Shown piece by piece: positions 17,162-35,985 of a stretch of 64,000 nucleotides of DNA. Positions within the stretch are counted from its first letter, which is position 1. Each line of letters opens with the position of its first letter. The notes below the pieces were generated by a model. The model was not told the origin of the DNA, did no database searches, and was given only the letters and a program-made list of their open reading frames with translations. This stretch comes from Lophium mytilinum (lineage: Eukaryota). The position numbers and the translations under genes are program-made. Where the stretch lies: NCBI GenBank assembly GCA_010093605.1, contig MU004188.1, positions 375,673 through 439,672 of the forward strand. The letters are read 5' to 3'.

Positions 17162-18801
17162 ATGCCGTTTACTACTGCAAAGAAGCAGATCTACCTAAAT
17201 TTCTTCGAGCATGGCTGCACAGGTAGTCACATGTCTCCGGGTCAATGGCGGTTCGTCATATACTTGTAATCGTATAATCAGAAACTTTTCTAATTCATCG
17301 CAGCGACCCAAGCGACAAAGGCACCACGAAGGACACGCTCGACTACTGGATCAACCTTGCCAAACTTGCTGAAGAAGGCAAAATCAACTTCATCTTCTTC
17401 GCAGATGGCTATACCACACACGAGATCTATGAAGGCACTTCTGATCCCATGCTTCGGGCTGGCACCCAATTCGCGACTATCGACCCAATGACCGTCATTC
17501 CCGCCATGGCAGCCGTTACAAAGACGCTCGGATTTGGTGTGACGGGTAGTACTAGCTATCTTACCCCATTCATTCTGGGAAGGACGTTCAGTTCACTAGA
17601 TCATCTCACCAAAGGCCGCATTGCATGGAATGTGGTGACGAGTTGGAGCAAAAGTACTGCTCAGGCGCTGGGAGCTGAGGATGTTATACCCCATGATGAG
17701 CGCTACGCCATGGCACATGAATATATGGATATAGTCTACAAGCTTTGGGAGAGCTCGTGGGCAGATGACTCGGTGGTCTGGGACCGGGAGAGACGCGTAG
17801 CCTTCGAACCGAGCAAAGTCAAGCGGATTGAACATCAAGGTCTGTACTCCCAGCCTAATAGTGAGGCATAGACACACACTTACAGAACCCTCACAGGCAA
17901 ATACTTCAAGATGTCCGCCCGTGGTAACACCCACCCCTCACCACAGCGGACGCCAGTCATATTCCAAGCTGGCACGTCCACGGCTGGGCGCGCCTTCGCA
18001 TCGAAACATGCTGAAGCAATATATGTCGGTGGTCTCGTTCCAGCGCAGACGAAAGGTAGAATAGCGGCCATCCGCGCCGCAGCCGCCGAACGGGGTCGCG
18101 ACCCAGCATCGCTCAAGTTCTTCGTTGGCATTTCCCCAATCCTGGGGGCAACCCTAGAAGAGGCACAAGCAAAATACGAGCGAGCGAAAGAAAATGCGGA
18201 CGTAATTGGCGGGTTAGCACAGTTCTCGGGATACACAGGTATCGACCTCAGCCGTTTCCCATTGGACAAGGTGTTTGAGCTCAAAGATGCACCTGGGGAT
18301 GACGCTGTTCACTCGTTCCTCGAGAACTTCAACAACGTCTCTGGTAATACTGAGCCATGGACACCACGACGGTTGGGTGAGAAGATGGCTCTAGGGGGGT
18401 TCCACCCGGCGCCAGTGGGGACGCCGGCGATGGTTGCGGATGTATTCGAGCAGTGGATTGACGAGGCTGATGTAGACGGCTTCAACATCGCGTACATAAC
18501 GACACCAGGCAGCTTTGAGGACATCGTTTACCTTCTCAGACCAGAGTTGGTGAAGAGAGGGCTCATGTGGGAGGACTATACAGTCCCAGGTGGTTCCCTG
18601 AGAGAAAATCTGACGGGAGTCAAGGGTCAGAAGGGCATTTCATCAGATCACTACGCAGCGAAGTTCAAGTACGGAAGAGGTTTCGAAGGCGACAGCATCG
18701 AAGCAATGAAAGCGGTGAAACCCAAGACGAATGGTGTAAGTATCAAGCTGCCAGTACTGAATGACAAGCTCCCAGCAGCTCGAGAGGAAGTCAAGGCGTA
18801 G
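17162..18801 (+). CDS. FMNH2-dependent luciferase-like monooxygenase, NtaA/SnaA/DszA family (introns 17251-17303 and about 17840-17897)
   Basis: MPFTTAKKQIYLNFF...PGQWR, YWINLAKLAEEGKINFIFFAD, DPMTVIPAMAAVT, SLDHLTKGRIAWNVVTS, SPQRTPVIFQAGTS, DVDGFN are hallmark motifs of this family. Confidence 0.92.
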
Positions 18802-19102
18802 CATTTCCTATTCTGTACTTTTCTCAGTCTGTACTTTTTTCAGTCACGAAGCATTCTCTGGTCCAATTTCCCTCGATTTTCGGCCGGATGCAATGTTCCG
18901 ACCCGAAACCCTATCTAGCGCTCTACATTCATGTACATAACTTCTTTAGTGCAAGCATCCGTCGCATATAGCTCGGAGCTTCCTACATATCTGTCATGTC
19001 GCTAGCACAGCAATTACTCAAATTGCTCTTGAAGGTATCTTACATACTACATCTGCCTGGTATTCCACTCGTATACTCAACCCCACTCACTGCTCGCCTG
19101 CA

Positions 19103-19951
19103 ATGTCTATACCTATCAAGAAGGCCTACGCCGACACCCCCCTAGGCCAGATCCACTACCGCACTGCCCTACACCCCTCTCCCACCAAAAACCCCCTCAT
19201 CCTCCTCCACAAATCCGCCTCCTCTTCCGCCTGCTACGACCTCCTAATCTCCCACTACTCATCCCTCGGCCACCCCTGCTACGCCCCCGACATGCCCGGC
19301 TTCGGCAACTCTTTCGACCCCTCCGATTCCGACGTCGCTGACATCCATAAACGCGGCACGGGCTGGTACGTCTCCCTCTTCATGACCGTCTTCCAATCCC
19401 TCGGTCTCTGCGAGCCCGGGAAGAAAGTCCACCTCATCGGCCACCACTCCGGCGCCGCACTAGCTACCGAGCTCGCAGCCGAGTACCCAGAGTGGGTGAG
19501 CTCCGTCCTTCTCGTCGGCGCCAGCGTCATGGACGAAGCCGAGCGCGCTGAGATGCGCAAAACCTACTTCGACCCCTTTAACACACCCGTCGCCGACGGC
19601 AGCCATCTGCTGAAGACGTGGACGTACCTCGAGAAGATGGGGGTGGGGGGCGATTTGGCGCTGCAGCAGCGGGAATTCCTAGACCATGCGCGGGCGTGGC
19701 GGGGGCGGATGCTGATTTACGGCAGTGTGTGGGACCAGGATGCGGTGGGGCTGTATATGCGGATCCAGGCGCCGATGGTGGTGATGTGTGCGCGGGATGA
19801 TGTGTTGTGGAAGTTTTTCGGGAATGTGAAGGCGTTGAGGGGGGATGTGGAGGCAGTGGAGTGTGGAGGGGCAAATTTTACGGTGGATAGGGATGTGGAG
19901 GGGGTTGTGAGGACGTGGGATATGTTGATGGCAAAGGGGGAGCATGTGTAG
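19103..19951 (+). CDS. Alpha/beta-fold hydrolase
   Basis: Intronless 282-aa ORF with GQIHYR, LILLH, APDMPGFGNS and nucleophile elbow GHHSGA. Confidence 0.85.
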   Translation: MSIPIKKAYADTPLGQIHYRTALHPSPTKNPLILLHKSASSSACYDLLISHYSSLGHPCYAPDMPGFGNSFDPSDSDVADIHKRGTGWYVSLFMTVFQSLGLCEPGKKVHLIGHHSGAALATELAAEYPEWVSSVLLVGASVMDEAERAEMRKTYFDPFNTPVADGSHLLKTWTYLEKMGVGGDLALQQREFLDHARAWRGRMLIYGSVWDQDAVGLYMRIQAPMVVMCARDDVLWKFFGNVKALRGDVEAVECGGANFTVDRDVEGVVRTWDMLMAKGEHV

Positions 19952-20049
19952 GGAGAGACGTGTGATATTGTAGCAATGATAGCTATGCTTTTGGGTTAAC
20001 TCAGGGGTAGGTCTGAATATGTAGGATTGAGTGCGTGATGCAGTTCTGC

Positions 20050-21899
20050 GATATCTTTGCCTTCTTGCCCGTTTGACGTAGAAGGCGATAACAGGCTCCG
20101 GCACAGGAATTGGGGTGACCTGAATGACAGAAGTTTCAACTACAAATGACGTGTAGGTCAACGTGGGTTCCCCATTTAGCCATGACGTGGTGCCGTTCAC
20201 GATTGAGAAGTAGTATGGCACGGGGTGGCTTAATGTCAACTGCCTGTGCTGAAGATGCGCCACTTTAGTTCTCGTATTCCATAATACGTGGTACCACGCC
20301 TTCGACTGAGACATTCTCGCCCATGAAGTTAAGTACGGTAGCTTCGTATTGTCAGCACTGAGAGTAAAGGAGAGAAAGAGAAAGACTTATAAATGAAAGA
20401 CGTTGATACCCGCTATAGGCGACACGAATAAGCCGGATGTAGCCCTTGTCATCATGGGAAATCAGACATGATATCGGACCTGAGAAAATCTGTAAGTAGC
20501 TGTGGTAAACTTTTTAAAAGACTAACACCGAGTTCGCCGCAGAGAAACGCTACAATACCGGCGGTGAATAATCCGGCTACAAAGTTCCCCAATGATACCA
20601 CCAACATCAAGTCTAGTAGCAAGATTGCTAGACCCTGCGGACAAGTCTGTAGCGTTTACTCCCGTGGCGATCTGCGCAAACGCGTTGGCATATTTCCTTC
20701 TTCAAGAATGCCGCAACGCAGGTAAAATTTGTCGAATTCAATTTAGCAGAGAACGCTTGGCGCTTTTTTCTCGGCGTTCCTCACCAAAATTTGTATGAGA
20801 GCCGCGGGGAATACCACCTGATTAAATGTCAACCTTTCAACGTTCGCTAGATAATTATGAGCAAGGCTCCTCGGGCATAATATATAGCTATTTAGCAGGA
20901 TTTTAAGTACTCTAGTGCCCTAGAACAACTGTCTTAGACACCTGCTACCTATTCTACCTAGGAACGCGTCTGCTTCGCACCTAAGAAGAGCCCCTTAATT
21001 ACTAAAGTATTAAAGTTATTATAAGTAGAAAGCACGCATACATAACCTTCCTTTGTGTTATCTAAGGGCTGTTAAGAGGTTAACATTTAATTAGGTGGTG
21101 CTCCTCGCGATTCTCAGACAAATTTTGGTGAGGAACGCCGAGAAAAAAGCGCCAAGCGTTCTCTGCTAAATTGAATTCGACAAATCAGTAATTGAAAAGG
21201 GCCAATAATATCGCTCCTCAACTGGCACTGGAAGAACATCGTGAGTCGCCCATATGGCGCTGTGTCCCTCACTTCAATTTTAATAGACTTTGTCGCGGAA
21301 TAAGAAGCGGTAAACCGTGTAAATGGTGTAATGGACAATAATGATGCAGGGGAGAGAGGGGTCTGAAAGGAGGTGAGGCTATATACAAGGTGCCGTGCGC
21401 CTGTCGTAGCCCTCACCGCTACTCACTGACAGTCTTGGACGTACGCGGAATGTGAGGCTAGGATCGGATCCCCATAATGCTGATAAAAAAGCTAGAGATT
21501 CTAGACATAGTAAAAGAGTCGGTTAGTGAGACACCAGCGCAGTGTGACATGGTGGACATAATTAACATATACTCCTGAGAGCATACAGTCGCGGAGGTTG
21601 ATGCTAAAGACGTGTTCGAAAGCGGCATGAATGGTGAGGAGATTTCGTTGCTAGTAACGTCGCTATCTAGAAAAACGCCTCGTCACCTATAATCCCAGGC
21701 GCATAGCTCTCGTATAATCGATGAACATGTGACGACAGCTGATGTTGTGGCTGCTACAACTCGTGAACTTATGCTCGCGGAAGGCATCCGATGCGTGCAT
21801 ACAAAGGGCGCTGCCAGAAAGGTCCATATCGTGCCCGTGCTCGTTAGAACACAATTTTCATAGCGCCTAAAGAGACCAAGAGGCTGAGAATAAGGCCAT
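20050..21899 (-). pseudogene. Probable decayed gene for a secreted Ser/Thr-rich protein, interrupted by the foldback element
   Basis: Minus strand begins MALFSASWSL*AL* at 21899. Protein-like fragments lie in shifting frames on both sides of the element (ANAFAQIATGVNATDL, GNFVAGLFTAGIVAFL, YYFSIVNGTTSWLNGEPTLTYTSFVVETSVIQVTPIP). Boundaries are approximate. Confidence 0.3.
20727..21185. mobile_element. MITE/foldback-type non-autonomous element, 459 bp with about 115-bp terminal inverted repeats
   Basis: 20727-20794 is the exact reverse complement of 21118-21185 (68 bp). Pairing continues imperfectly, mostly with transitions, to 20841/21071. The interior is non-coding and TpA-rich. No clear target-site duplication. 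Confidence 0.8.
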
Positions 21900-22859
21900 T
21901 AATGGCGAAGTGCATCTGGTTGTCGTGGGCGATGTGGCTGATGTCGTGGACGGGCGGGTTCAAAGCCATCGGGAAGCTCTCCATCGGCTTTCTGCTGCCG
22001 TTCTTGTGAATCTATAGCCATGCCTCTCAAGTTGCCAAAACCCTGGGGGGTAACGAGGTTGGCAACAATTCCAGTCAGGGACGAAAGATCGATGGAAAAG
22101 AAAAGACGATGGCAATTGTTGATTGATGAAGGATGCGATGCAAGAGTTCAAAGAATCTCCTTAGCGAGCAATTTACCATTTAGGCGTTTCACTTCGTAGT
22201 TCAAAAGCAGTCGGGCCGTCTCAAGTACACTCTCATCGAACTTACTTTTGCCCAACTAGCAAGTTTCCTTCAACAAAAGTAGCAGCCTATAAATATATAA
22301 TTACACTCTATAACGTCCACTCATCTGGGTTATGTACACCAGAACTACTTGCGGTCCCCTAGTATGTCACTAAGAATTAAGAAATGACAGGTCTGATAAG
22401 CCTGATAAATCTTCGGGTCTCCTTAAATGGAGTCATAATGGACCGCTAATTGCAATTACAGAAGCTTAAACTTCTACGGATTTGCCTATTACCCTTGGGC
22501 CGCGTGTAGAACTACAGTACAGAGATCTACGCGTAGATATCGATTTCTGCACAGACGGACCGAATAACTGTAGGTCGAGTGAACTACCGGGAGACTACCC
22601 GAAATGCTGTCTGAGAGAGGGGCCAGTGTTAGCACCCCGCCACAATAATAGAACCTCGAAAACCGTATTCCAAATCTCCATATGAACCAGAAAAACCTTT
22701 GCAAAGCTCTGAGGTGCTAAAAGAAGCCTAAGGCAGTTTTCACTCTAATTTTACCATTCGCAAACTTCAGTCCAATACTCGATCTTCAAAATCTATTTAC
22801 ATCTCATTGCTCGAGGCTCACATAATTCGCAAGTTGCAATTCCCGACATACTGTTCGCC

Positions 22860-23759
22860 ATGTCACCATCATCAACCACCATCTCCAGTAACTCCCTCCC
22901 CATCGAGGCCCCAGACAAAGAGTCCCTCATAAAACGTAATCCTCACGCCGATTTCCCAGCCGTCCAAGCATCCCGCCCCTCCTATCCAACTCCCCCCTTC
23001 AACCTCACCAAAACCCCAAACCCAGACTGGCTTCCCGGCACAGGCGCTTCTGACTCCTCCTGGCGCCAACACGCTCTTCGGATTGTCGACCCGAATGGCC
23101 CAAACCGCACAACGGTCCAAAATTACAAGCTCATGATCTCCACCACCGTTCCCCGACCTATCGCCCTAGTAAGCACAGTGTCCAGCACTGGCGTAAAGAA
23201 TGTAGCGCCATTCTCGTTCTTTCAGGCCGTGAGCCAGGATCCGCCGCTCTATTCGCTCTCCTTCGTAGGCCAGGACCCCAACGATAGCCTAAGAAACGTG
23301 CTGGAGAGCGGGGAGTGCTGCATAAGTCTTGTTAGCGACTGGTTCATTGAAGCGGCGAACTACACTTCTATCAACACGCCACCTCATCTGTCTGAGTGGG
23401 AGCTTGCTGGGCTCAGCCCGGTGGCCAGTCAGGTGGTGAAGGCGCCGCATGTGGGGGAGAGTGCGTTCTCAGTGGAGTGCAAGTTGCATTCATCGCACGA
23501 TATCATTGGGAAGAGCGGTAAGAGGTCGGCGACGCTGGTGTTAGTTGAGGCAGTGATGTTTCATGTAAGGGAGGATGCAGTGGATGAGGCAGGAGTAACT
23601 GCAGATGCGGGGGTCTTGAGGGCAATTTGGAGGGGCGGCGGCATCACGTACGGCGTTTGTGCGAATGCGTGGGAATTGCCGAGACCGGAGACCTGGAGGG
23701 TAGAGCGCGAGAGGGAGGACGTGAAGAAGCTGGATAAGAAGACCAATGGAGCAGCGTAG
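22860..23759 (+). CDS. Flavin reductase-like, FMN-binding split-barrel protein
   Basis: 299-aa ORF with YKLMISTTVPRPIALVSTVS, NVAPFSFF, DSLRNVLESGEC, APHVGESAFSVECKL and GGITYG motifs. Confidence 0.88.
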   Translation: MSPSSTTISSNSLPIEAPDKESLIKRNPHADFPAVQASRPSYPTPPFNLTKTPNPDWLPGTGASDSSWRQHALRIVDPNGPNRTTVQNYKLMISTTVPRPIALVSTVSSTGVKNVAPFSFFQAVSQDPPLYSLSFVGQDPNDSLRNVLESGECCISLVSDWFIEAANYTSINTPPHLSEWELAGLSPVASQVVKAPHVGESAFSVECKLHSSHDIIGKSGKRSATLVLVEAVMFHVREDAVDEAGVTADAGVLRAIWRGGGITYGVCANAWELPRPETWRVEREREDVKKLDKKTNGAA

Positions 23760-23774
23760 AGAGATTGAATTTAC

Positions 23775-23897
23775 CTTTTCGTAGTTGATGGCGAAGGGCA
23801 CGGCGATCTTCGCACCGTGGGGCCAGTTTAGATTAAAGAATTCTCTCCATGGAACTGTCCGATGAGATCACGGTGCTAATCCTAGTTTCGACCTCAT
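23775..23897 (-). pseudogene. Frameshifted 5' remnant of a PuuE-like allantoinase / polysaccharide-deacetylase-family gene
   Basis: Minus strand gives RDLIG..GENS, then after a frameshift NWPHGAKIAVPFAINYEK, followed by a GTAAAT donor. This resembles the family N-terminus RDLxGYG...WPxGAKIAVxFVINYEEG. No downstream exons are seen. Confidence 0.6.
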
Positions 23898-25145
23898 TGC
23901 AATTTATTGCCGCCTTTTGGAATAGGATTTCTTTGGAGAACATAGTTAGATGATATCAACGAGATTACAAACGACAAGAATGCTAAAGAAAGGCGTCCCA
24001 ACTTATGACAGAGACTAGATGGGACTGCCTAAATTGTAGGGAAAAAGCGTCTTAACAAGTTATAAACGGGATAGACTTAGCAATAAGATAGCTTTCATAT
24101 GCAAGAGAACCTTTATATCGAGCCGTTGCGTGTAAGCCGCTGTGCCGCCGACAGCAGAGCTATTTTATCCCACAATTGAGGCAGGTTGAATAGACGAAGT
24201 CGACTGATCGCGTCTTTCTCTATCGATCCATGCTGTGAATATCTCTTCGACACAGACAGCGCTAACCGAGATGTATTGGGAAAGGTTTGATGGTGAAAGT
24301 TGAGTTGAGGTCCATCCGAGCACGTCCCCTCTGACGTTCTTCCCGTCTCGTCTTCTGCCGAACAGTAACTACCATCTCCATCCCATCAACAACTCCCACG
24401 CAAGGATTGCGCGCATATCGCCCTTCTAAACCGAACTATAGTTCCTTCACATGCGTATCAAAGCAAGTTGTTCGCATCAATGTATCCCTTTCAGCTTACA
24501 ATGGCAGCGTATTGACCATGCTCTACCCTCTCTCCACCACGTCGCCCCAACCCTCTACCACGTCAATCGCAACGACTGGACTTCGCGGATATTTTACCAT
24601 GTGAAGAGAAGAAGGAGTAGGGACACCGTAGTTTTGAGCCCCAACAGGCTCCACTCTGCGCCAGGATTACGGAGACATGCTGCTGCTCCGAAGCTTCGAG
24701 GACTCTTCAGGTCTCGCGTTCCTGCTATCTATAATCGGGGATACTAGACTGAGGAGCATATTGGATGCTGACGCTCTTCAAGTTCGGCAGAATTTCCGGT
24801 CTTATGCGGTCTCTTAAGAAGACTTTCAGAGGATGTGTACCTGGACGACGATCGATCTCACCCGCTAGGACTGTGAGATTAATAACATCTAGGGCACCTA
24901 AACCCTTCAGCCTCCATATAAATTTCAATTCCGGGAAAGTTACGCTCTATAAATTTAAACGTTTTCTCGGTCACCCAGCCTCGCCTATTAGCTCGGGACT
25001 CGCTGCAATTCTTGACGTATCGTATCGATATAGTGGCATCTATTCTATCCCGTACCACGTCTTAGAGTATCTTTAAACTATACCTCCCATAGTCCAACGC
25101 CTTTCCCAAATGCTAAACGCCGATCCATGCATTTTTGTTGGCTTT

Positions 25146-26416
25146 TCATTGCATACGCACAACCATCTTCTTCCCACCCATATCTCCTTTCTTCAGCATG
25201 TCTAATCCGCTCACTACTACTTCTAGACCGCCATCCATGACGTGGATCTCCGGTAATTTCAGCTCCCCAGATTGAAGCATTCGGTTTAGCTCCTCCGCGT
25301 AGAATATGTTGGACCTGTCGAGCACGAACTGCTTCATTTCAACGGTGTGTGCTGTTACATTCTTAGGGACGACCTGCTTCGACGACATCATGGCCAAAGG
25401 GGCAAACTCGACGGGAAGCGTTTCCGAGACACATTGCAGAACCAGTGCCGCAGTCTTCGGGCCCACCAAATCGATTGCTCGTGTAACTTTTCCCCCGGCA
25501 GCGGCTTTGATCTCCGATATGATCTGTTCGTCCGATTTGCCGTCTCTAGATATGACATGTGTAGCTCCAAGCCTCTGCGATAGGCTCTTCGTTCGCTCAG
25601 AGGTTACCGTGATCACGTTCAGTCCGCTCGCGATGGCGTATTGGGTCGCGAACTGCCCTGTCACGGTGGAGCCTCCCCAGATCAGAAGCCAGTCCGATTC
25701 ATGGCTTTCTTTTAGTGCTCCGGTAGTTTCTGGCAATGGCACCTCTAACCACTTCCACAGGGCCATTCCAGCGGTAAGTGCAGCAACGCCTAAACACGCC
25801 GCAGATTCAAAGTCTAGATTTCCAGGTATTGGTAGCACCGTGTGCTCGGGCACTACTACAAGCTCTTGGAAGCAACCAGCTCGGACGTCGCGGTAATACG
25901 TGCTTGTCCAGACTCTGTCCCCTGCCCTTAGATTCTTGACGTTCTTCCCAACTTTGTGTACTACACCAGACATTTCGCGGCCAGTTACCTATTGACTGTT
26001 AGATTACTGCAGTGGCTGACTGATTGGAAGATACTAACCCATGGGAATTCAGGGAGGCAAAAGTTGTAATCCACGGATTTCCAGTCGATCGGGTTCAAGC
26101 CAACGCAGCGGCTTCGGATCATCACTTCATCGTCGTCTAGGTGTGGGACGGGATGGCTGTGCCGCAGCTCATATTGGCCCTTCTCTGCGACGACCAATGC
26201 CTTGTGGACTTGGGGATGCGGATATTCGATCTTGTTTGGGCTCTCAACAATCTCTACGGCCGAGTCGTATTGCGCGTCTTTCTTCCCTCCGACAACAATC
26301 GTTGTGCTGCTACGTTTAGCCCGATGGCGACGAGCCTTTTTCAGTAGCCCGCGGATGCTCTGCCACGATGTTGTCTTGATGCTCAAAGGTTGTGGTTGTG
26401 TCTGAACGGTGGCCAT
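25146..26416 (-). CDS. Medium-chain dehydrogenase/reductase (GroES-like; quinone or trans-enoyl reductase type); intron about 25990-26038
   Basis: VGLNPIDWK, GREMSGVV, AGDRV, GCFQELVVV and the Rossmann motif LIWGGSTVTGQFATQ. Confidence 0.88.
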
Positions 26417-26871
26417 TGCGACAGTGCGGAAACAAATCCGAGATAACGGATTAGAAATGCAAAATACTGAAAGAGGAATCAGATACGATGGTGGTCTGAC
26501 TGTCTGAAGATGGTCGTGCTACCAGGAGGACATGACAGTGATATACAAACAGGAGGCAACGGGAGGTTTCAAGTTGCCGGCAGTGTTGAGCCTCTCCTGC
26601 GTGCTTGGGTAGTGGGATGAGGTCACAGAATCGGTATGACAGAAGGATTTTGCATCGCGGAAGCCACTACAGGACCGAATTGCCCTTTTCCGACCCGCGT
26701 GCGCCGACATACATAGGGCGGATGGCGTGCGCAGCCCCCCGTTGCTCGAATTGCTTTCCCTGCCCTCCCGCAGGCCAAAGGAAGAGTCGGCGTGGAGCAA
26801 ATGGTGCTTTTCCTCTTCCGTCGAGCCCTAGTCGAACCCACTTTCGGGTACTAGGAGCAGAGCCGATCGCG

Positions 26872-26886
26872 TCGGAAGCCTTCCGA
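26872..26886. promoter_or_regulatory. Palindromic Zn2Cys6-type site TCGG-N7-CCGA in the divergent MDR/AtuA promoter
   Basis: TCGGAAG-C-CTTCCGA is a perfect 7-bp inverted repeat. Inverted CGG triplets are the standard half-sites of Zn2Cys6 dimers. Confidence 0.5.
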
Positions 26887-27158
26887 TACCCGCCGAGGCC
26901 GCGATCTGAACACCAACAACAACAAATCTAGGAGTTTTTATGCTCGAGAGAACCAAACCTATGGGCTATACTACCCATGGCCCTACGGCTAGGTCTCCGA
27001 CGAGGTTTGGATGTTGAATGTCCCGCAGATTTGCGGTTGATATTGCGACTAGACTGGAGTACAGCTCCTGGCATATCAACTACTGCTGTCACTAAATATC
27101 AGACATCTGTTCCAGTATTACTGACAACAGCTTTCCCTAGTAGCACCAAGTCTTCAAG

Positions 27159-29037
27159 ATGGGTTCCGTCAATCCCCCGCGGCCGATCCGCATTATGAAC
27201 ATTTCTGGATCCCCTTCTGACCGCCGCGATGCCCTCGCAATCGCCGCCGCTTCCAATGAACCCATCGACGTATTTGTTGGAGACTGGATGTCAGAAGTCA
27301 ATATGCCCACACGAGCATACGATATTGTAAACAGTCTGGGCGTTGGGTACGAGCCAACATTCATCGAAACGCTCGAGCCGGCTCTGGAAAACATCGCCAA
27401 GAAGGGGCTGAAGCTAGCAGCAAATGCGGGCACAGTTGCGACGAAAGATTTGTTCAATATTGTCGTATCCATGGTAAAGGAAAAGGGACTGGATCTGAAT
27501 GTTGCTTGGGTGGAGGGCGACGCGGTGCTTGACCAAATCCAAGCATCGCTAAAGAAGAGCCCGTCTTCCTTCGTCAGTGTATGCACTGGACAGTCATTGG
27601 AAGATTGGCCTTATGAGCCCATCTTTGCACAATGCTATCTTGGCGGCATGGGCATCGCGAAGGCTTTTGGGGCTGGTGCAGACATCGTCATATGTGGCCG
27701 AGTAGCGGACGCATCCCCAATCATAGGAGCAGCAGCATGGTGGCATGGCTGGGCGGTGACAGAGTTCGACAAGCTTGCACAGAGTCTCATTGCTGGTCAC
27801 CTTATCGAATGTTCGACCTACGTGACTGGTGGTAACTACACCGGATTTAAGAGCTTGGATTGGGACACTATGCATGCCTTCGGGTACCCTATTGCAGAAA
27901 TATCCCACGATGCAGATGTCATCATTACCAAAGTCGAGGGAACTGGAGGAATTGTCAATGTTGAGACTTGCAAAGAACAGCTTCTTTACGAGATTCAAGG
28001 CGCTTACTACCTCAATGGCGATGTCACCGCTGTCATTGACAAGGCCAAATTCACAGAGATTGGAAAAAATCGGGTACGTCTCTCTGGAATCACTGGACTG
28101 CCTCCCCCGAGTACAACAAAGTGCGGACTTACAGCATTCGGCGGCTACAAGGCAGAGATTCACTGGGCGCTAGTTGGTCTTGATATCGAAGAGAAGGTAA
28201 AGATGCTGGATATTCAGATGAAGCATAGCTATGGAAAGGAGCGACTCTCCAAGTTTACCACGTTTGACCTCACCGTTTATGGATCCGTGGCGAAGAATCC
28301 CAAGAACCAGAACGCTGCCACAGTTGACCTGCGGCTTGTGGTCGAGTCGAAGGATCCGAAAGCTCTCTCAGTGGAGAACTTCATGAGGCCAGCATTCGAC
28401 ATCATCATGCAATCTTTCCCAGCAGCGACCTATCATCCAGACCGAAGAACAGCGTCACCTATGCCAGTGAGTTCCCCTGCTGCACCCCACGTAATAACAG
28501 TCACTAATACTCTAACAGTATCAAGAATACTTCCCAACTCTGATCCCCCAATCGACGCAAACAATTCACTTCTCCAACTCTTCCCTGAAATCTATTACCC
28601 TCCCACCCCCTTCAAACACCATTCCCCACAAGCCCCAACAGCCCTCATACCCGCCTACTTCCCCCGTCTCCCTCACCTCCTTCGGCCCCACCACTCCTAC
28701 ACCTCTCGGCCACGTCGTCCTTGCACGCGCAGGCGATAAGGGCTCCAATTGCAACATTGGTCTCTTCGTGCGGCACGAAGACGAGTGGGCGTGGCTGCGT
28801 AGCCTCCTGAGCATGGAGACATTTATCGGACTACTAGGGGAAGACTACCACGGACAGAAAATTGACCGGATGGAGTTTGAGGAGCTATGGGCGGTGCATT
28901 TCTTGCTACATGATTGGTTGGATCGGGGCGTTACGGCAAACGCGACGTATGATATCCTGGGCAAATTCTTGGCCGAGTATCTGAGGTGTAAGATTGTGGA
29001 TGTGCCGAATGTGTTCTTGGAGAGAGGGAAGATCTAG
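27159..29037 (+). CDS. AtuA-like (DUF1446, acyclic terpene utilisation family) protein; intron about 28467-28518
   Basis: IRIMNISGSPSDR, VGDWMSE, GVGYEPTF, YLGGMGI, GADIVICGRVADAS, AGHLIECSTYVTGGN, EQLLYEIQG and C-terminal ARAGDKGSNCNIGLFVR...DILGKFLAEYLR. Confidence 0.9.
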
Positions 29038-29713
29038 ACTTTTGAAGCGCCGAATTTTAGGGTTACTTTGTTCGTGAAGCTGGCTTCTATGCACGTGGAT
29101 TGCATGTGACGTTCGCTCTGCTTTTCCTCATTCGGTAATCGGGAATAGCCGCTTGGTGTTCCAACGCCGAACGCAAACGCTACTTCAATCCCGTCGTACA
29201 CACATAAAAACTAGGTTTAAGAGAGCTCCGGCATATGCGGCGACATGCATCCGCATTTCGGTCTGTCTGGCCCTGTCATTCATCCTTATCTCTCCAGGCC
29301 CTACTGACTCAGGCTATTCCTCGGCGCGTCGTTTCTCCCTCCCCGTCACGACCACCACCACCCATTCTTGCCGGCTGGGTTGGCCTCGACTCGGGACCTA
29401 GCGTCCCAGCAACCATAAGTTAGGATATCAAACCGCGCAGTCCGATGTGCCTATTGGTGGCCGGACCCGTGAACGTGAAGTGCCGGTCCAGAACGCGGTG
29501 CCGCACCCTGGATAGATGCCCAGGTTGCGCAAGTATGGCAGGCAGGAGTTGGGACAATGCCGAGATATAGGTACGGGAGGCCCACGGCGGGCAGCCGCAA
29601 GCATACTTCCTTTCTTAATTACGTCCCTCAAATAACTCATACCTCTCATCCCTCTCGCCGCTGTCTCTATTCTCTTCTATTCCATGAGTGTATGAATTCC
29701 GACTTTGACATAT

Positions 29714-32441
29714 ATGAACGTAATGAGAACGCAGGACAGCGCGAGCAGCGCGATTGCGATGAACAAACCAAGGCCAGTGAAGAGGGCGAGGGTTGCGGTG
29801 GCTTGCCAGAGGTGTAAGACGAGAAAGCAGATATGTTTGCCCTTTCTTTTACAAGGCCTTTCTCTTTTCAATCCCAGAGCATTCAGTTAGTCAAGATACA
29901 CTTCGAAGTCACAGTCCTTCACACTTGCAATCTTACTCTACGGGTTGAAATCACGACAGTCCCAATAAGACTGGAGCATGAAACTTATGCAAAGGGAATA
30001 CTAAAGCTAACTCCCCCAGCACAAATGCGACGGCGTCCACCCCACCTGCGCCAACTGCCGCAACTTCCAAGCAAACTGCGAGTACATCATGCCCTCTAAA
30101 ACCGTCAACGGTACTCGTGAACAGTACTTTCGCGCCGTCGAAGACCGCGTTGCGGAACTAGAAGGCATCCTCGTGCGAGAGGGGATCGGAGATGAGGGTA
30201 TGGTGAACTGGAAGAAATTACAGAAGGAGCTGGGTTCCGTTGGGAATGCGAATGCGAATGGGAGCGGGAGCGGTAGTGGAGGTGATGATGCTGGTAGTGG
30301 TAGCCCGCCCAAGAATCCAGTTATTATAGCAGCAGGCAGTGAAAATGGGATTGAGGACTGGGGCCTGAATTCGAGCACAACGCCGACCCCGACGAATGCG
30401 TTAGCCGTGAGGAGGCATACGAAGCGGCCGAGTACATCCTTTGATGTTGGAGACCACGCTGAGAGTCGGACTGATTTGTATGATTTCGGAGGCGTGGACT
30501 CCGTGGTCGAGATACTAAGGGACTTGTCGCTGGAGGCTAGTGGGGGGTATATTGGCGCATCGTCGCACATTACGATGGGCCGAATGATCGGATCGATAGT
30601 TAAGGCGAAAGAAAGCTTCACAGCAACGAACGGACGGGGAATCGAAGAACATCTTAGCCCGAAGTCGGTGTGCACAGTTGCAAGTCCACCGGATGGGATA
30701 CTGGAGGCGCGACATGTCCCGGCGGATATTGCGGAGAGGCTACTCAAGGGTTACTTGAAGCACATCTCGACTCGATGGCCGGTGCTACGAACCCCATATG
30801 TACGGAGGCTACATGCGGAAAGGCTGAATCTAATCGATCCGTATTCCACTGCGCTTTTGCACCTGGTGTATGCCATTGGGGGACGATTCCTGGAGACGAC
30901 CGGCGAAACGGGTAATTTCTTCCCGGAAGAGCACCATGCAGCAGCGCTGCGACACTTGGATGAAATATTGCAGTATCACGACATCCGATCTGTAGAGGTC
31001 CTGCTGCTTCTCTCGATATACAGCTTGAGAGCACCGAGAGGTCCAGGCGCATGGACGTATGTTGGACTGGCTATGCGGCAGTGCATTGATATGGGGTTCC
31101 ATCGAAGGACTCCTCGAAAAATAAGGTCGCTTATGGAGTCGGAGATGAGGAAGAGAGTCTTCTGGTCTTGTTACTGTCTAGATAGACAAGTCTCTATCAT
31201 TTTAGGAAGACCGTTCGCGATCTCTGATAGGGACATAGATGTTGAAGTAAGTACCTCCCTCCATCTGAGACGAATGAATCCGTCCTGACAATTGAAAGCT
31301 ACCTCTGGACGTCGATGAAGCTGTGGAAGACCCTGTGTTACTCGAGCAGGCACATCGTGCCGCAAAGATACAGGGAGACCAGCCTCCTTCCAAATCATCA
31401 TCTATGAGCTGCTTCATCCACATATGCCGCCTAAGAATCATCGAATCCAACATACAGCAAGCGATCTACCGCGTCGACCAACCTACTGGTGCAACAGAGG
31501 CAGAAGTCGAAAGGTTCGTCGTGCAACTAGAGCAATGGAAAGCGAACATGCCCCGAGACGCTCGAAACCCTGACACAACCTCAAACGTAGAATTAGACTC
31601 CATGTCCATGGATGGTTACGACTACTACGTACGTCTCTCCTCCCTCCCCCCCAAGATTTACGCTCAAACGCTGACCCTAATTCCATAGATGGTATACTAC
31701 TACAAATGCATGCGCTTCCTCCTCCATCCCCACCTCTCTCGGCAACAAACAAACACCCAATTCCTCCGCAAATGCGCCGACGCCTGTGGCGGCGTGTGCC
31801 AGACCTACAAAAAACTCCACCAGAACGTTTCCGTCGGCTTCTCCCTCATGGCGCTGCACTCCGTCTTCCTTGCTGGGCTGACACTAATCTACTGCGCCTG
31901 GATCTCGCCGCGCGAGGTCTTCAGCATCACCGCGTCGAACGACATGACTGCGTGCAGCATCGTGCTGTACATTATCACGGAGCGCTGGCCTGGCGCAAAG
32001 AAGTACCGTGATGTGTTTGAGACGATTAAGCAGAATGTGCTGGATAGCATCGAGGAAGGCAAGTATGCGCCAAGGCGGGCGATCAAGAAACTGAGGCCTA
32101 CGCTGCGGCAGACGCTCAGGACAATGGATAAGAATGAGGAGGGCCAGGAAGAGTTTGAGGCTATGGTTGCAGATATGGCTGGAGCGGAAACCGAAGCCAG
32201 TAGCGAAGGGAGTTTAAGCTTAAGCACGACTCCTAATACCGAGAGGTACGACAGTCACGACTTTGGGAATGGGATCATGGAAGGGGGGCAGTTTACGTTT
32301 GGGCCGCCGCTGGATAATCTGCCACTGGATTGTCATGGTGGGCAGTATGGGATGGATGTGCAGGATTGGATGCTGCATGATGCGTTGGACTTGAGTGGGT
32401 TTGAAATTGATGGATTTCAGGCTGAGGCTGGGCATTTCTGA
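29714..32441 (+). CDS. Zn2Cys6 transcription factor with fungal_TF middle homology region (PPR1/UaY-like architecture); probable cluster regulator
   Basis: ACQRCKTRKQ|KCDGVHPTCANCRNFQANC when 29831-30022 is spliced out. Middle region GLAMRQCIDMGFHR, RKRVFWSCYCLDRQVSIILGRP. Further GT-AG introns at about 31247-31298 and 31629-31688. Confidence 0.9.
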
Positions 32442-33196
32442 CTTCTGCTATGTCTATTTACTATTACTGTCTTTAGGGGCTGGGAAGATTCGACCGCGAT
32501 CTTGGTCTGGTTTCGTCCCGCGTTGCTGCGTATATATCAATCAGATTTTTACATTTTGGGTATAGGAAGCTCGTGGATATCACCTGGGAGACCTACGATT
32601 TGGGGGTATATAACAACAGAGATACCCCTTCCAGATATCACATGACCATTTGAATTTCACATTACAAACACTCTCAATCTTTGCTTCTTCCTTATCGCGT
32701 ACCCCTTCTTTCTCATCAGCACAGTTCCAACACCCACCACTTTTGAAGTGCATTGAACCAATCAGACACCATCGGCAACTCACAGCCGACCCTATCGGAG
32801 CAGCGCTCTTATTCCGATACCACAGAATATGTGAGCACGCTTGCGAATGACGAATTATGGAAGCTCACGATAACGCGATAAGAGACATACTTGGGAGCTA
32901 TGGAGAGGGGGGCAAGCGGGGGCAAGCGGGGTCAAAGTCGGCACTTCAAACTGAAAGGATGAGGACGACAGCAGGAACGGCTGTGATGACCAAGGAGGGG
33001 TGGGTAACACGTGGTGGGTACGAAGGATATGCAGGTACAGTGACTAGAAGCGTTAGCTGTAGACTATTCTACTGGTAGGACGGAGTCTCTGAACGCTTTC
33101 CTTTCCACACTTTTCTCATTATTCATACACTCTTCCGCGCGAACCGCAACTCAACCTTCCTCTCTAAAATCCGCCAATCTACATGGGCTATTCTAA

Positions 33197-34753
<1,557 letters not shown>

Positions 34754-35217
34754 GCTATAAGTTTGTCCATTTCACATTCGAAAATTAGAGCTCAATGATT
34801 TGTGATAAAGCAAAAGAACTACACCTGAGGTGTAAAATGGAAGTGTGTACTACCTACCCAGTGTGAGAACTCTTGGCGAAATAAAAGCTCAATGTACAAA
34901 ATGCTAGTAAATCTAGTTGTAGGCTCTTCGTAGAGGGCGTGTGCATATTGCGGTACCGGTTTACCATTTACAGCCCCTAAGTATAGAGCTCACCAGTGAA
35001 TCCGAGGATAGATTGCTTGATGAAAATGGAGAGGGGGAGGTGTGAATGCAGTACTGATTTTACACACGGACCACATGAATTACCCCTGACGCACATCTTG
35101 CATGACTCACGCCTTCCTTCGACGCCCCGATCCTCCGCTCGAAGAGGCCACGAATCGGCCAAACGTTTGGTTTGGCTTCCATTCACTAAGCCACTGCACA
35201 CCCAGAGTCTAGCAGCC

Positions 35218-35985
35218 ATGGCCATCGAACTACGTCCAATGGAAGTGGACGACTGCCTGCAATGGATGCGCATCCGCTCGATCGCGTATCAGGGCCCAAC
35301 GAATCTCATCGTCCACCATCGTCCGGTATCCGACGAGACTCTTGCCAAGGTAGCAGAGCAACGGAAGAAAGAGTTTCACGATCCAGGGACCTACCATTGG
35401 AAAGTTGTGGACGTCGAGACTGGGAAAATGATGACCGCGGCGAGATTTGAGTTGCACAACATGCAAGAGGAGAAAGGAGAGACAGAAAACGTGCCTGTCA
35501 AGAACAACGAGGCTCCATTTGTCCCACCAGAAGTCAATATGCCGGTTCTCATGGCACTTCTTGGACCTCTCCGCCAAGCACAGAGCGAGATCATGGGCGA
35601 TCGGCCATATCTGTTGCTCGACACGCTCGCCACTCTTCCCGAATACCACCGGAGAGGTGCTGGGGCAATAGTGGTGAAGTGGGGGGCAGAAAAAGCAGAT
35701 GAACTGGGCATAGAGTTCTATTTGACAAGCTCGATGGTGGCAAGACCTCTATATGAGAAATACGGCTTCGTTCTGGTAAAGGACAATTGGTTTGATCGAG
35801 GGCCCTGGGGAGGAGAGGGCTTAGATTGGCATGGGGTACGTGGCATCATTTCTTTGCTTCTATTGAAGGGATCCCTTGACTCTTTACGTCGTCCTTTGGG
35901 TCTTGATGTCGTATGAGTCGATCTTGAAGCTGGAGGCTAACCTTCCCAGTGCATGGTCAGGAAACCGAACACAATGTCAACGTAG
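35218..35985 (+). CDS. GNAT-family N-acetyltransferase (intron about 35836-35949)
   Basis: Starts MAIELRPM. Acetyl-CoA motif A LATLPEYHRRGAG and motif B ARPLYEKYGF. Final exon CMVRKPNTMST. Confidence 0.85.

Follow-up and report, generated by a model that had tools for sequence, protein, structure and literature searches.

We describe here an intron with AT-AC borders that splits the Zn2Cys6 cluster of a regulator gene in Lophium mytilinum. The gene lies within a window of 64,000 nucleotides (nt) of contig MU004188.1 (assembly GCA_010093605.1), to which all coordinates below refer. The intron occupies positions 29831-30022 of the + strand, is 192 nt long and lies in phase 0. We conclude that it is very probably a genuine spliceosomal intron that is precisely removed from the mRNA, most likely by the major (U2-type) spliceosome. 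New here, and well supported, is that AT-AC borders form the coding joint of a DNA-binding domain and that this joint has shifted by one codon relative to its GT-AG homologues; in the literature searched, no Zn2Cys6 gene was described as having an AT-AC intron.

Exon 1 ends with ...AAG CAG at position 29830 and is followed by ATATGT (29831-29836, + strand), which reads as a 5' splice site of the GTATGT type with A at +1, while the intron ends with ...GCTAACTCCCCCAGCAC at position 30022 and is followed by AAA TGC GAC GGC from position 30023. The intron in genomic DNA starts with AT and ends with AC, as U2-type AT-AC introns do, and the cut falls between a Q and a K codon of the regulator. The terminal AC (30021-30022, + strand) is identified as the 3' splice site in use by the sequence together with the joint in a transcript contig (run X3, below). 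An AG at 30018-30019 (+ strand), part of a CAG at 30017-30019 that sits 3 nt upstream of the CAC end in use, is passed over by the assembled transcript; its use would add a His and give a spacing of x7 in the cluster. The description of the ATATGT donor, the AC end and the skipped AG in the original prediction, made from the sequence alone, was right in every detail.

A single pair of borders restores the zinc cluster

We enumerated candidate borders with donors in 29790-29959 and acceptors up to 30069, which gave 518 pairs (101 GT-AG, 90 GC-AG, 170 GT-AC, 54 AT-AG and 103 AT-AC). An open frame is kept by 29 of these pairs, and the full C-x2-C-x6-C...C-x2-C...C cluster is produced by one pair only, 29831-30022. 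The original prediction that AT-AC splicing alone gives the C-x2-C-x6-C spacing is borne out by this count, as is its claim for the skipped AG, since the product of the AT-AG pair 29831-30019 shows the x7 spacing. Nearby GT and GC donors had been expected to fail, and each of the five open GT-AG or GC-AG pairs does lose part of the cluster. Considered over all six Cys residues, the spacing C-x2-C-x6-C-x5-12-C-x2-C-x6-8-C is obtained only after AT-AC splicing. When the products were scored against a profile of homologues (82 of the 130 fetched, those with a complete cluster), the AT-AC product scored best, with 76.7 bits compared with 69.7 bits for the AT-AG product. The joined product is the same as the orthologue consensus, ...C-K-x-R-K-Q-K-C-D-G.

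The joint is present in an assembled transcript

Four public runs (X1-X4), all of them in the form of assembled contigs, were aligned over positions 29400-32600. The DNA contigs of X1 and X2 span this region in one piece with no differing letters, although these two runs are one sample, possibly the source of the assembly itself, and are not independent. The original prediction depends on the bases at 29831 and 30022, and at both positions the X1 and X2 contigs carry no other letter; A at 29831 and C at 30022 are uncontradicted by any read-derived contig.

Record 6 of run X3 (2532 letters, none differing) covers 29733-29830, 30023-31246, 31299-31628 and 31689-32568. It carries the joint 29830->30023 ("skips 192, AT..AC") with 98 letters on the shorter side, which is exactly the predicted joint, and the transcript is neither unspliced nor spliced elsewhere. 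The same record also drops both GT..AG introns further downstream, introns 2 and 3. One A fits both sides of the joint, so a cut one place further on (TA..CA) is possible. We treat X3 as RNA because it holds four exact intron joints, none of which is found in the DNA runs X1 and X2. The intron in the leader of the gene is present in X3 in both spliced and unspliced form, a sign of transcript origin, and the run is letter-for-letter equal to the window. No X3 contig retains intron 1, the joined form being the only one assembled there, and none with an AT-AG joint at 30018-30019 is listed, in a data type that drops rare forms.

The joint could be an artefact of reverse-transcriptase template switching, of a mis-assembled contig or of wrong base calls at the intron ends, and it is true that the evidence consists of assembled contigs rather than raw reads, that X3 is a single run and that the assembly may have been built from the DNA runs. 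We regard this as highly improbable. The two sides of the joint have 1 letter in common ("both" = 1), which is too little for template switching, and X3 has no contig here other than the joined form, which runs on across two ordinary introns. Moreover, the joint restores residues conserved in homologues, which only one of the 518 border pairs does, and the X1 and X2 contig sets match the window at every base.

A G-to-A change at +1 is a classic inactivating mutation, and the public model of this gene lacks the cluster, both of which would suit a dead allele in which a donor mutation broke the zinc cluster. The spliced X3 contig contradicts this explanation, as the transcript is spliced to an intact frame of 807 codons with a complete cluster, and the remainder of the protein shares 88-93% identity with the orthologue in Mytilinidion. 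The chance that the allele is dead appears negligible.

Less improbable, but still unlikely, is that splicing at AT-AC ends is slow or conditional and that the intron limits, like a valve, how much functional regulator is made. Double mutants of yeast introns with A at +1 and C at the last position splice less well than the wild type. The intron is 192 nt long compared with a median of 58 nt for the homologous introns of relatives, and the CAG 3 nt upstream of its end could yield a non-functional product with x7 spacing. A weak hint in the same direction is that a contig of run X4 enters the intron from exon 1 while intron 3 is spliced in that run, but X4 may contain DNA, and X3 assembled the joined form only. 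A scan of 29300-30200 against Rfam (E<=1) gave no matches, so that no snoRNA or other known RNA is present in the intron, and the fold of 29821-30032 is ordinary (z = 0.20; 111 of 200 shuffled sequences fold equally well), with no special structure.

The X4 run comes from organism C, a relative that is mostly 90-99% alike. Its contig at 29721-29868 extends from exon 1 for 38 nt into the intron and then carries 105 loose letters resembling a diverged intron; it could be a retained intron or DNA. X4 has no cover over 29935-30255 and therefore does not show the joint of exons 1 and 2 in this relative.

The motifs of the intron point to the major spliceosome

We infer the U2 type of the intron from its motifs and from the lineage of its host, and consider this a strong case. 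The donor ATATGTTTG resembles that of the major class and lacks the U12 motif ATATCCTT (consensus as given in PMC5029451, which, like the other papers identified here by accession, is cited for excerpts of its text). The same source gives /ATATCCTT as the U12 donor consensus and /ATAAGT as that of metazoan U2-type AT-AC introns. In the Lophium intron the U12 donor (A/G)TATCCTT is not matched, as positions +5 and +6 are G and T.

A candidate branch site, GCTAACT, is located at 30006-30012 (+ strand), with a putative branch A at 30010, 12 nt before the last base of the intron, and a second candidate, TACTAAA, at 29999-30005 (+ strand). The distance of the CTAAC motif from the intron end lies inside the 9-18 nt range of the relatives, of whose 27 GT-AG introns 20 have a CTRAY motif at such a distance from the end, and it also lies inside the U12 optimum of 11-13 nt (PMC3584512).

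The second possibility is that Lophium has retained a minor (U12-type) spliceosome which removes the intron. The AT-AC ends, the first four bases ATAT, which agree with the U12 donor, and the position of the candidate branch A, 12 nt from the 3' end and within the optimum of 11-13 nt (PMC3584512), are as expected of such an intron, and the last two also count against our assignment to the U2 type. The core motif is absent, +5 and +6 being GT rather than CC, and the candidate branch motif, CTAAC, is one common in fungi, whose distance from the end recurs in the GT-AG introns of relatives. The homologous introns are short GT-AG introns in 27 of 27 relatives. In a survey of more than 3000 genomes, in the part cited here, no minor introns found in Ascomycota or Basidiomycota were convincing, and most or all minor snRNAs are reported as lost (PMC10639083). 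We therefore find it very improbable that a minor spliceosome is involved, and the U2 type claimed in the original prediction is well supported, if by inference, by the lack of the U12 donor motif and by the reported lack of minor snRNAs in Ascomycota (PMC10639083).

Among the relatives, the intron at 2950-2997 of locus L007 (also seen in L008 and L010) has GT-AG borders and begins with GTATCCT, like the GT subtype of the U12 donor. Given its ordinary CTGAC branch site, this is probably a chance resemblance.

Removal by the major spliceosome may be pictured as follows. Apart from its first base the donor is an optimal fungal site, and pairing with U1 and U6 at positions +2 to +6, together with the preceding CAG, should permit the first step. 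The branch site would probably be the CTAAC 12 nt upstream of the intron end. The second step would require a fit between the two terminal bases of the intron, and A at +1 would suit C and not G; the spliceosome would therefore skip the CAG at 30017-30019 and cut after the CAC at 30022. A rule of this kind, according to which the first and last intron bases must match, is said to have been established by Parker and Siliciano in 1993, and it predicts that the CAC is used while the CAG 3 nt upstream is skipped. The Lophium gene would thus be a natural test case, in which an A-initial intron of a fungus from a lineage reported to lack the minor spliceosome uses a CAC beyond a CAG, in support of a match between first and last bases.

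Beyond the U12-like features of the ends and branch distance, some further points weigh against the reading of a precisely spliced U2-type intron. Its dependence on U1, U2, U4 and U6 is presumed from motifs and lineage. The label of X3 as RNA is a guess, its RNA nature following from the four joints, and X3 likely comes from the same strain as the window and does not represent a second isolate. The runs are available as contigs, which give no splicing ratios and drop rare forms, such as unspliced transcripts or those with an AT-AG joint.

Relation to known AT-AC introns

Introns of the U2 type with AT-AC ends (also called type II) are known in animals and plants (Wu and Krainer 1997; Sheth et al. 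2006, cited in PMC7072748, PMC3584512 and PMC5029451). The Lophium intron resembles them in its AT and AC ends, in a donor that is of the major class except for A at +1 (/ATAAGT in theirs, /ATATGT in Lophium) and in having neither a U12 donor nor a U12 branch motif. It differs from them in that its host lineage is reported to lack a minor spliceosome, in that its hexamer is of the fungal or yeast type, and in that it lies one codon away from its GT-AG homologues; its U2 type is, in addition, deduced here.

In yeast, an engineered AT-AC intron is spliced (Parker and Siliciano 1993, per PMC5029451). The same pairing of first and last bases as in the engineered A(+1)/C(last) introns would explain the use of CAC and the skipping of CAG in Lophium, although the Lophium case is natural and coding, its spliced form was assembled from RNA and no laboratory suppressor pair is involved. 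An endogenous AT-AC intron is nested in yeast RPL30, where it is found in 1-2% of mRNAs; it is non-coding, and its donor does not resemble known U2-type AT sites (PMC5029451). As far as this excerpt goes, the two cases have in common an ascomycete host, from a phylum reported to lack the minor spliceosome, and a joint confirmed on RNA, but the joint in Lophium is needed for the protein and its donor is near-consensus.

AT-AC introns are very rare in counts of fungal annotations (PMC7072748), and the non-canonical introns of Fusarium graminearum include AT-AC introns, with seven non-canonical genes confirmed by Sanger sequencing in Figure 7A of that study (PMC3577648). The Lophium intron agrees with these lists, which show that Pezizomycotina do have AT-AC introns, if very infrequently, and that such introns disturb gene models. 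In their cited parts, however, these genome-wide lists mention neither a case inside a Zn2Cys6 cluster nor an intron slid by a codon, nor any pattern across a clade. The U12-type AT-AC introns, finally, share with the Lophium intron the terminal dinucleotides, the initial ATAT and a short distance from branch site to end, but the Lophium intron has no ATCC(T)T core and its host lineage is reported, in the source excerpts, to lack the machinery. What we take to be the U12-type branch motif is likewise absent from the Lophium intron.

The homologous introns of relatives are GT-AG and lie one codon downstream

From metagenomes, a scan recovered 79 loci of fungal relatives. In 27 distinct relatives an intron separates the first two exons; its borders are GT-AG in 27 of 27 and its length is 48-122 nt (median 58). 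Each of these introns falls between the codons for K and C and so lies, relative to the cut in Lophium, one codon downstream. That the homologous introns of relatives are GT-AG and displaced by one codon had not been foreseen in the original prediction. Nine relative loci have no intron at this position. The five closest metagenome loci (L002, L004, L015, L016 and L021; 58-63% identity) start downstream of the cluster, and none of them gives DNA of the clade to which the Lophium gene belongs.

In a tree of 64 chosen rows, which includes models picked for a missing cluster, Lophium and Mytilinidion (100, starred) lie beside a starred clade of 15 rows, the link having a Shimodaira-Hasegawa-like approximate likelihood ratio test (SH-aLRT) support of 88, unstarred, and loci with GT-AG introns (L007, L005) as well as intronless loci lie around both. 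In a FastTree phylogeny of the window protein and all 129 other fetched proteins, the protein belongs to a clade of 22 rows (support 96), which spans Dothideomycetes, Sordariomycetes and a Penicillium. A complete cluster is absent in 20 of the 21 public models of this clade, compared with 26 of 108 outside it. One member of the clade, P0047 from Apiospora arundinis, has the junction Q-I-T-S-L-H-K-C, that is, an Ile codon (ATH) after Q and a His codon (CAY) before K, like ATA and CAC in Lophium.

These observations hint that the odd intron is common to the gene's own clade. It is very likely that the AT-AC intron is shared with Mytilinidion, and the balance tips slightly towards its being shared with the Sordariomycete members of the clade. 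The AT-AC intron would then probably explain the clade-wide error in annotation. The case for sharing across the clade is weakened in several respects. It relies on protein models, which are indirect evidence of AT-AC ends; species annotated by one pipeline are not independent, and several of the clade models are simply truncated. Models without a cluster also occur beside plain GT-AG loci (P0088 with L025; P0084 with L057-L064), which means that odd splice sites are not the only setting in which a model misses the cluster.

A second group of homologues (P0116, P0033, P0079, P0080, P0084, P0087 and P0088), of which P0116 is another Lophium paralogue, is modelled from "MPFG(R/K)N(H/Y)Y" without a Zn cluster. 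The nearest DNA relatives of this group carry ordinary GT-AG introns, which means that short first exons are missed for other reasons too. The model P0019 of Cirrosporium novae-zelandiae has 19 extra residues between ...K-Q-K and C-D-G, which look like an in-frame intron read through at the K/C position; since its first residue is Ser, where GT would lead one to expect Val, the donor of this insert may be unusual as well.

A possible origin by donor deletion

We infer that the AT-AC intron was derived from a GT-AG intron located one codon further downstream, as in all relatives examined, and the derived form is probably common to the gene's own clade. The ancestral intron would have been a GT-AG intron between the K and C codons that happened to end with ...AC before an AAG acceptor. 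A deletion of 3 nt at the donor, converting CAG AAG/GTATGT to CAG/ATATGT, would have eliminated the K codon along with the G of the GT donor. With A now at +1, the AC located 3 nt before the old acceptor would have been preferred, and a cut after this AC would return the old AAG to the mRNA as a K codon and leave the protein unchanged. An AAG acceptor is found in 8 of 27 introns of relatives, and AC before AAG in 0 of 27. We consider it tentative, and on the whole rather doubtful, that the AT-AC intron is old, clade-wide and of single-step origin.

Two other routes were rejected. A plain double change of G>A and G>C at the same place is ruled out by the position of the relatives' introns, 3 nt downstream. 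Repeat-induced point mutation (RIP) changes TpG to TpA; a mutation of this type was rejected as the source of A at +1, as the context is GG>GA and not TpG>TpA.

If the deletion scenario were true, the rule of first and last bases would have rescued a donor lesion in nature and slid an intron by one codon, and a single event would have hidden the DNA-binding domain in about 20 public gene models. The offset of one codon from the GT-AG homologues makes this gene a tractable case of intron sliding combined with a change of splice-site type.

Gene structure and annotation

The public protein P0001 of Lophium mytilinum is 100% identical to the translated exons, which assigns the window. The coding part of exon 1 (29714-29830, + strand; covered by X3 record 6 from 29733) encodes the first half of the Zn cluster and ends with ...C-Q-R-C-K-T-R-K-Q. 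After intron 1 (29831-30022, + strand), which is identified by its sequence, by X3 record 6 and as the only one of 518 border pairs to restore the cluster, exon 2 (30023-31246, + strand) encodes the other half of the cluster (K-C-D-G...) along with the greater part of the fungal transcription factor domain. Intron 2 (31247-31298, + strand; GT..AG, 52 nt) and intron 3 (31629-31688, + strand; GT..AG, 60 nt) are both removed in X3 record 6, and intron 3 is spliced in the relative's run X4 as well. They are separated by exon 3 (31299-31628, + strand) and followed by the coding part of exon 4 (31689-32441, + strand), with a stop codon at 32439-32441. The spliced coding sequence from 29714 has 807 codons and no internal stop, in agreement with the earlier claim that the rest of the gene is intact. 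The fungal-specific transcription factor domain PF04082 is found with 99.7 bits (cut-off 23). Exon 2 alone matches PF00172 at profile positions 12-35 only, with 19.9 bits, below the cut-off of 21.

An optional intron in the 5' leader (29571-29734, + strand; GT..AG, 164 nt) is spliced in X3 record 5 (joint 29568->29733, "cut +2") and unspliced in record 4. Its removal loses the in-frame ATGs at 29714 and 29723, the next in-frame ATG being at 29759. Splicing of the leader also puts an in-frame TAG just before the joint, and translation of the spliced form would therefore start at 29759. The Zn cluster is kept in both forms of the leader.

The public model P0001 starts with MPSKTVNG, which is residue 62 of the spliced product, and is identical over residues 62-807. 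It begins at an internal Met and lacks the entire DNA-binding cluster. The orthologue of Mytilinidion resinicola, P0002, is mis-modelled at the same spot, where it leaps from ...A-C-Q-R to a site far downstream, so that the error of gene finders anticipated in the original prediction is seen in both species. The public protein of the regulator lacks its DNA-binding domain because gene finders allow GT/GC-AG introns only, and the same probably holds for about 20 orthologues. Mining of regulators in such gene clusters would misread or miss this factor.

Gene neighborhood of the regulator

The regulator is embedded in a run of genes of redox or catabolic type at 17278-35916. Its neighbors are an AtuA-family gene (27144-29037) and an old-yellow-enzyme-type (OYE) gene (33197-34259), and genes for a Zn-dependent dehydrogenase (Zn-ADH), a flavin reductase, a luciferase-like monooxygenase, an alpha/beta hydrolase and a GNAT protein are also found nearby. 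It is plausible, judging from adjacency, that the factor regulates these neighboring genes. Record 3 of X3 (29199-29571) begins about 160 nt past the stop codon of the AtuA gene (29035-29037) and runs into the leader of the regulator; this implies either a leader of 500 nt or more, or read-through from AtuA. The adjacency of AtuA, OYE and ADH genes recurs in other fungi, judged by the fused public models P0005, P0021, P0028 and P0034, and in the models of Seiridium and Stachybotrys (P0005 and P0021) AtuA is fused with the regulator.

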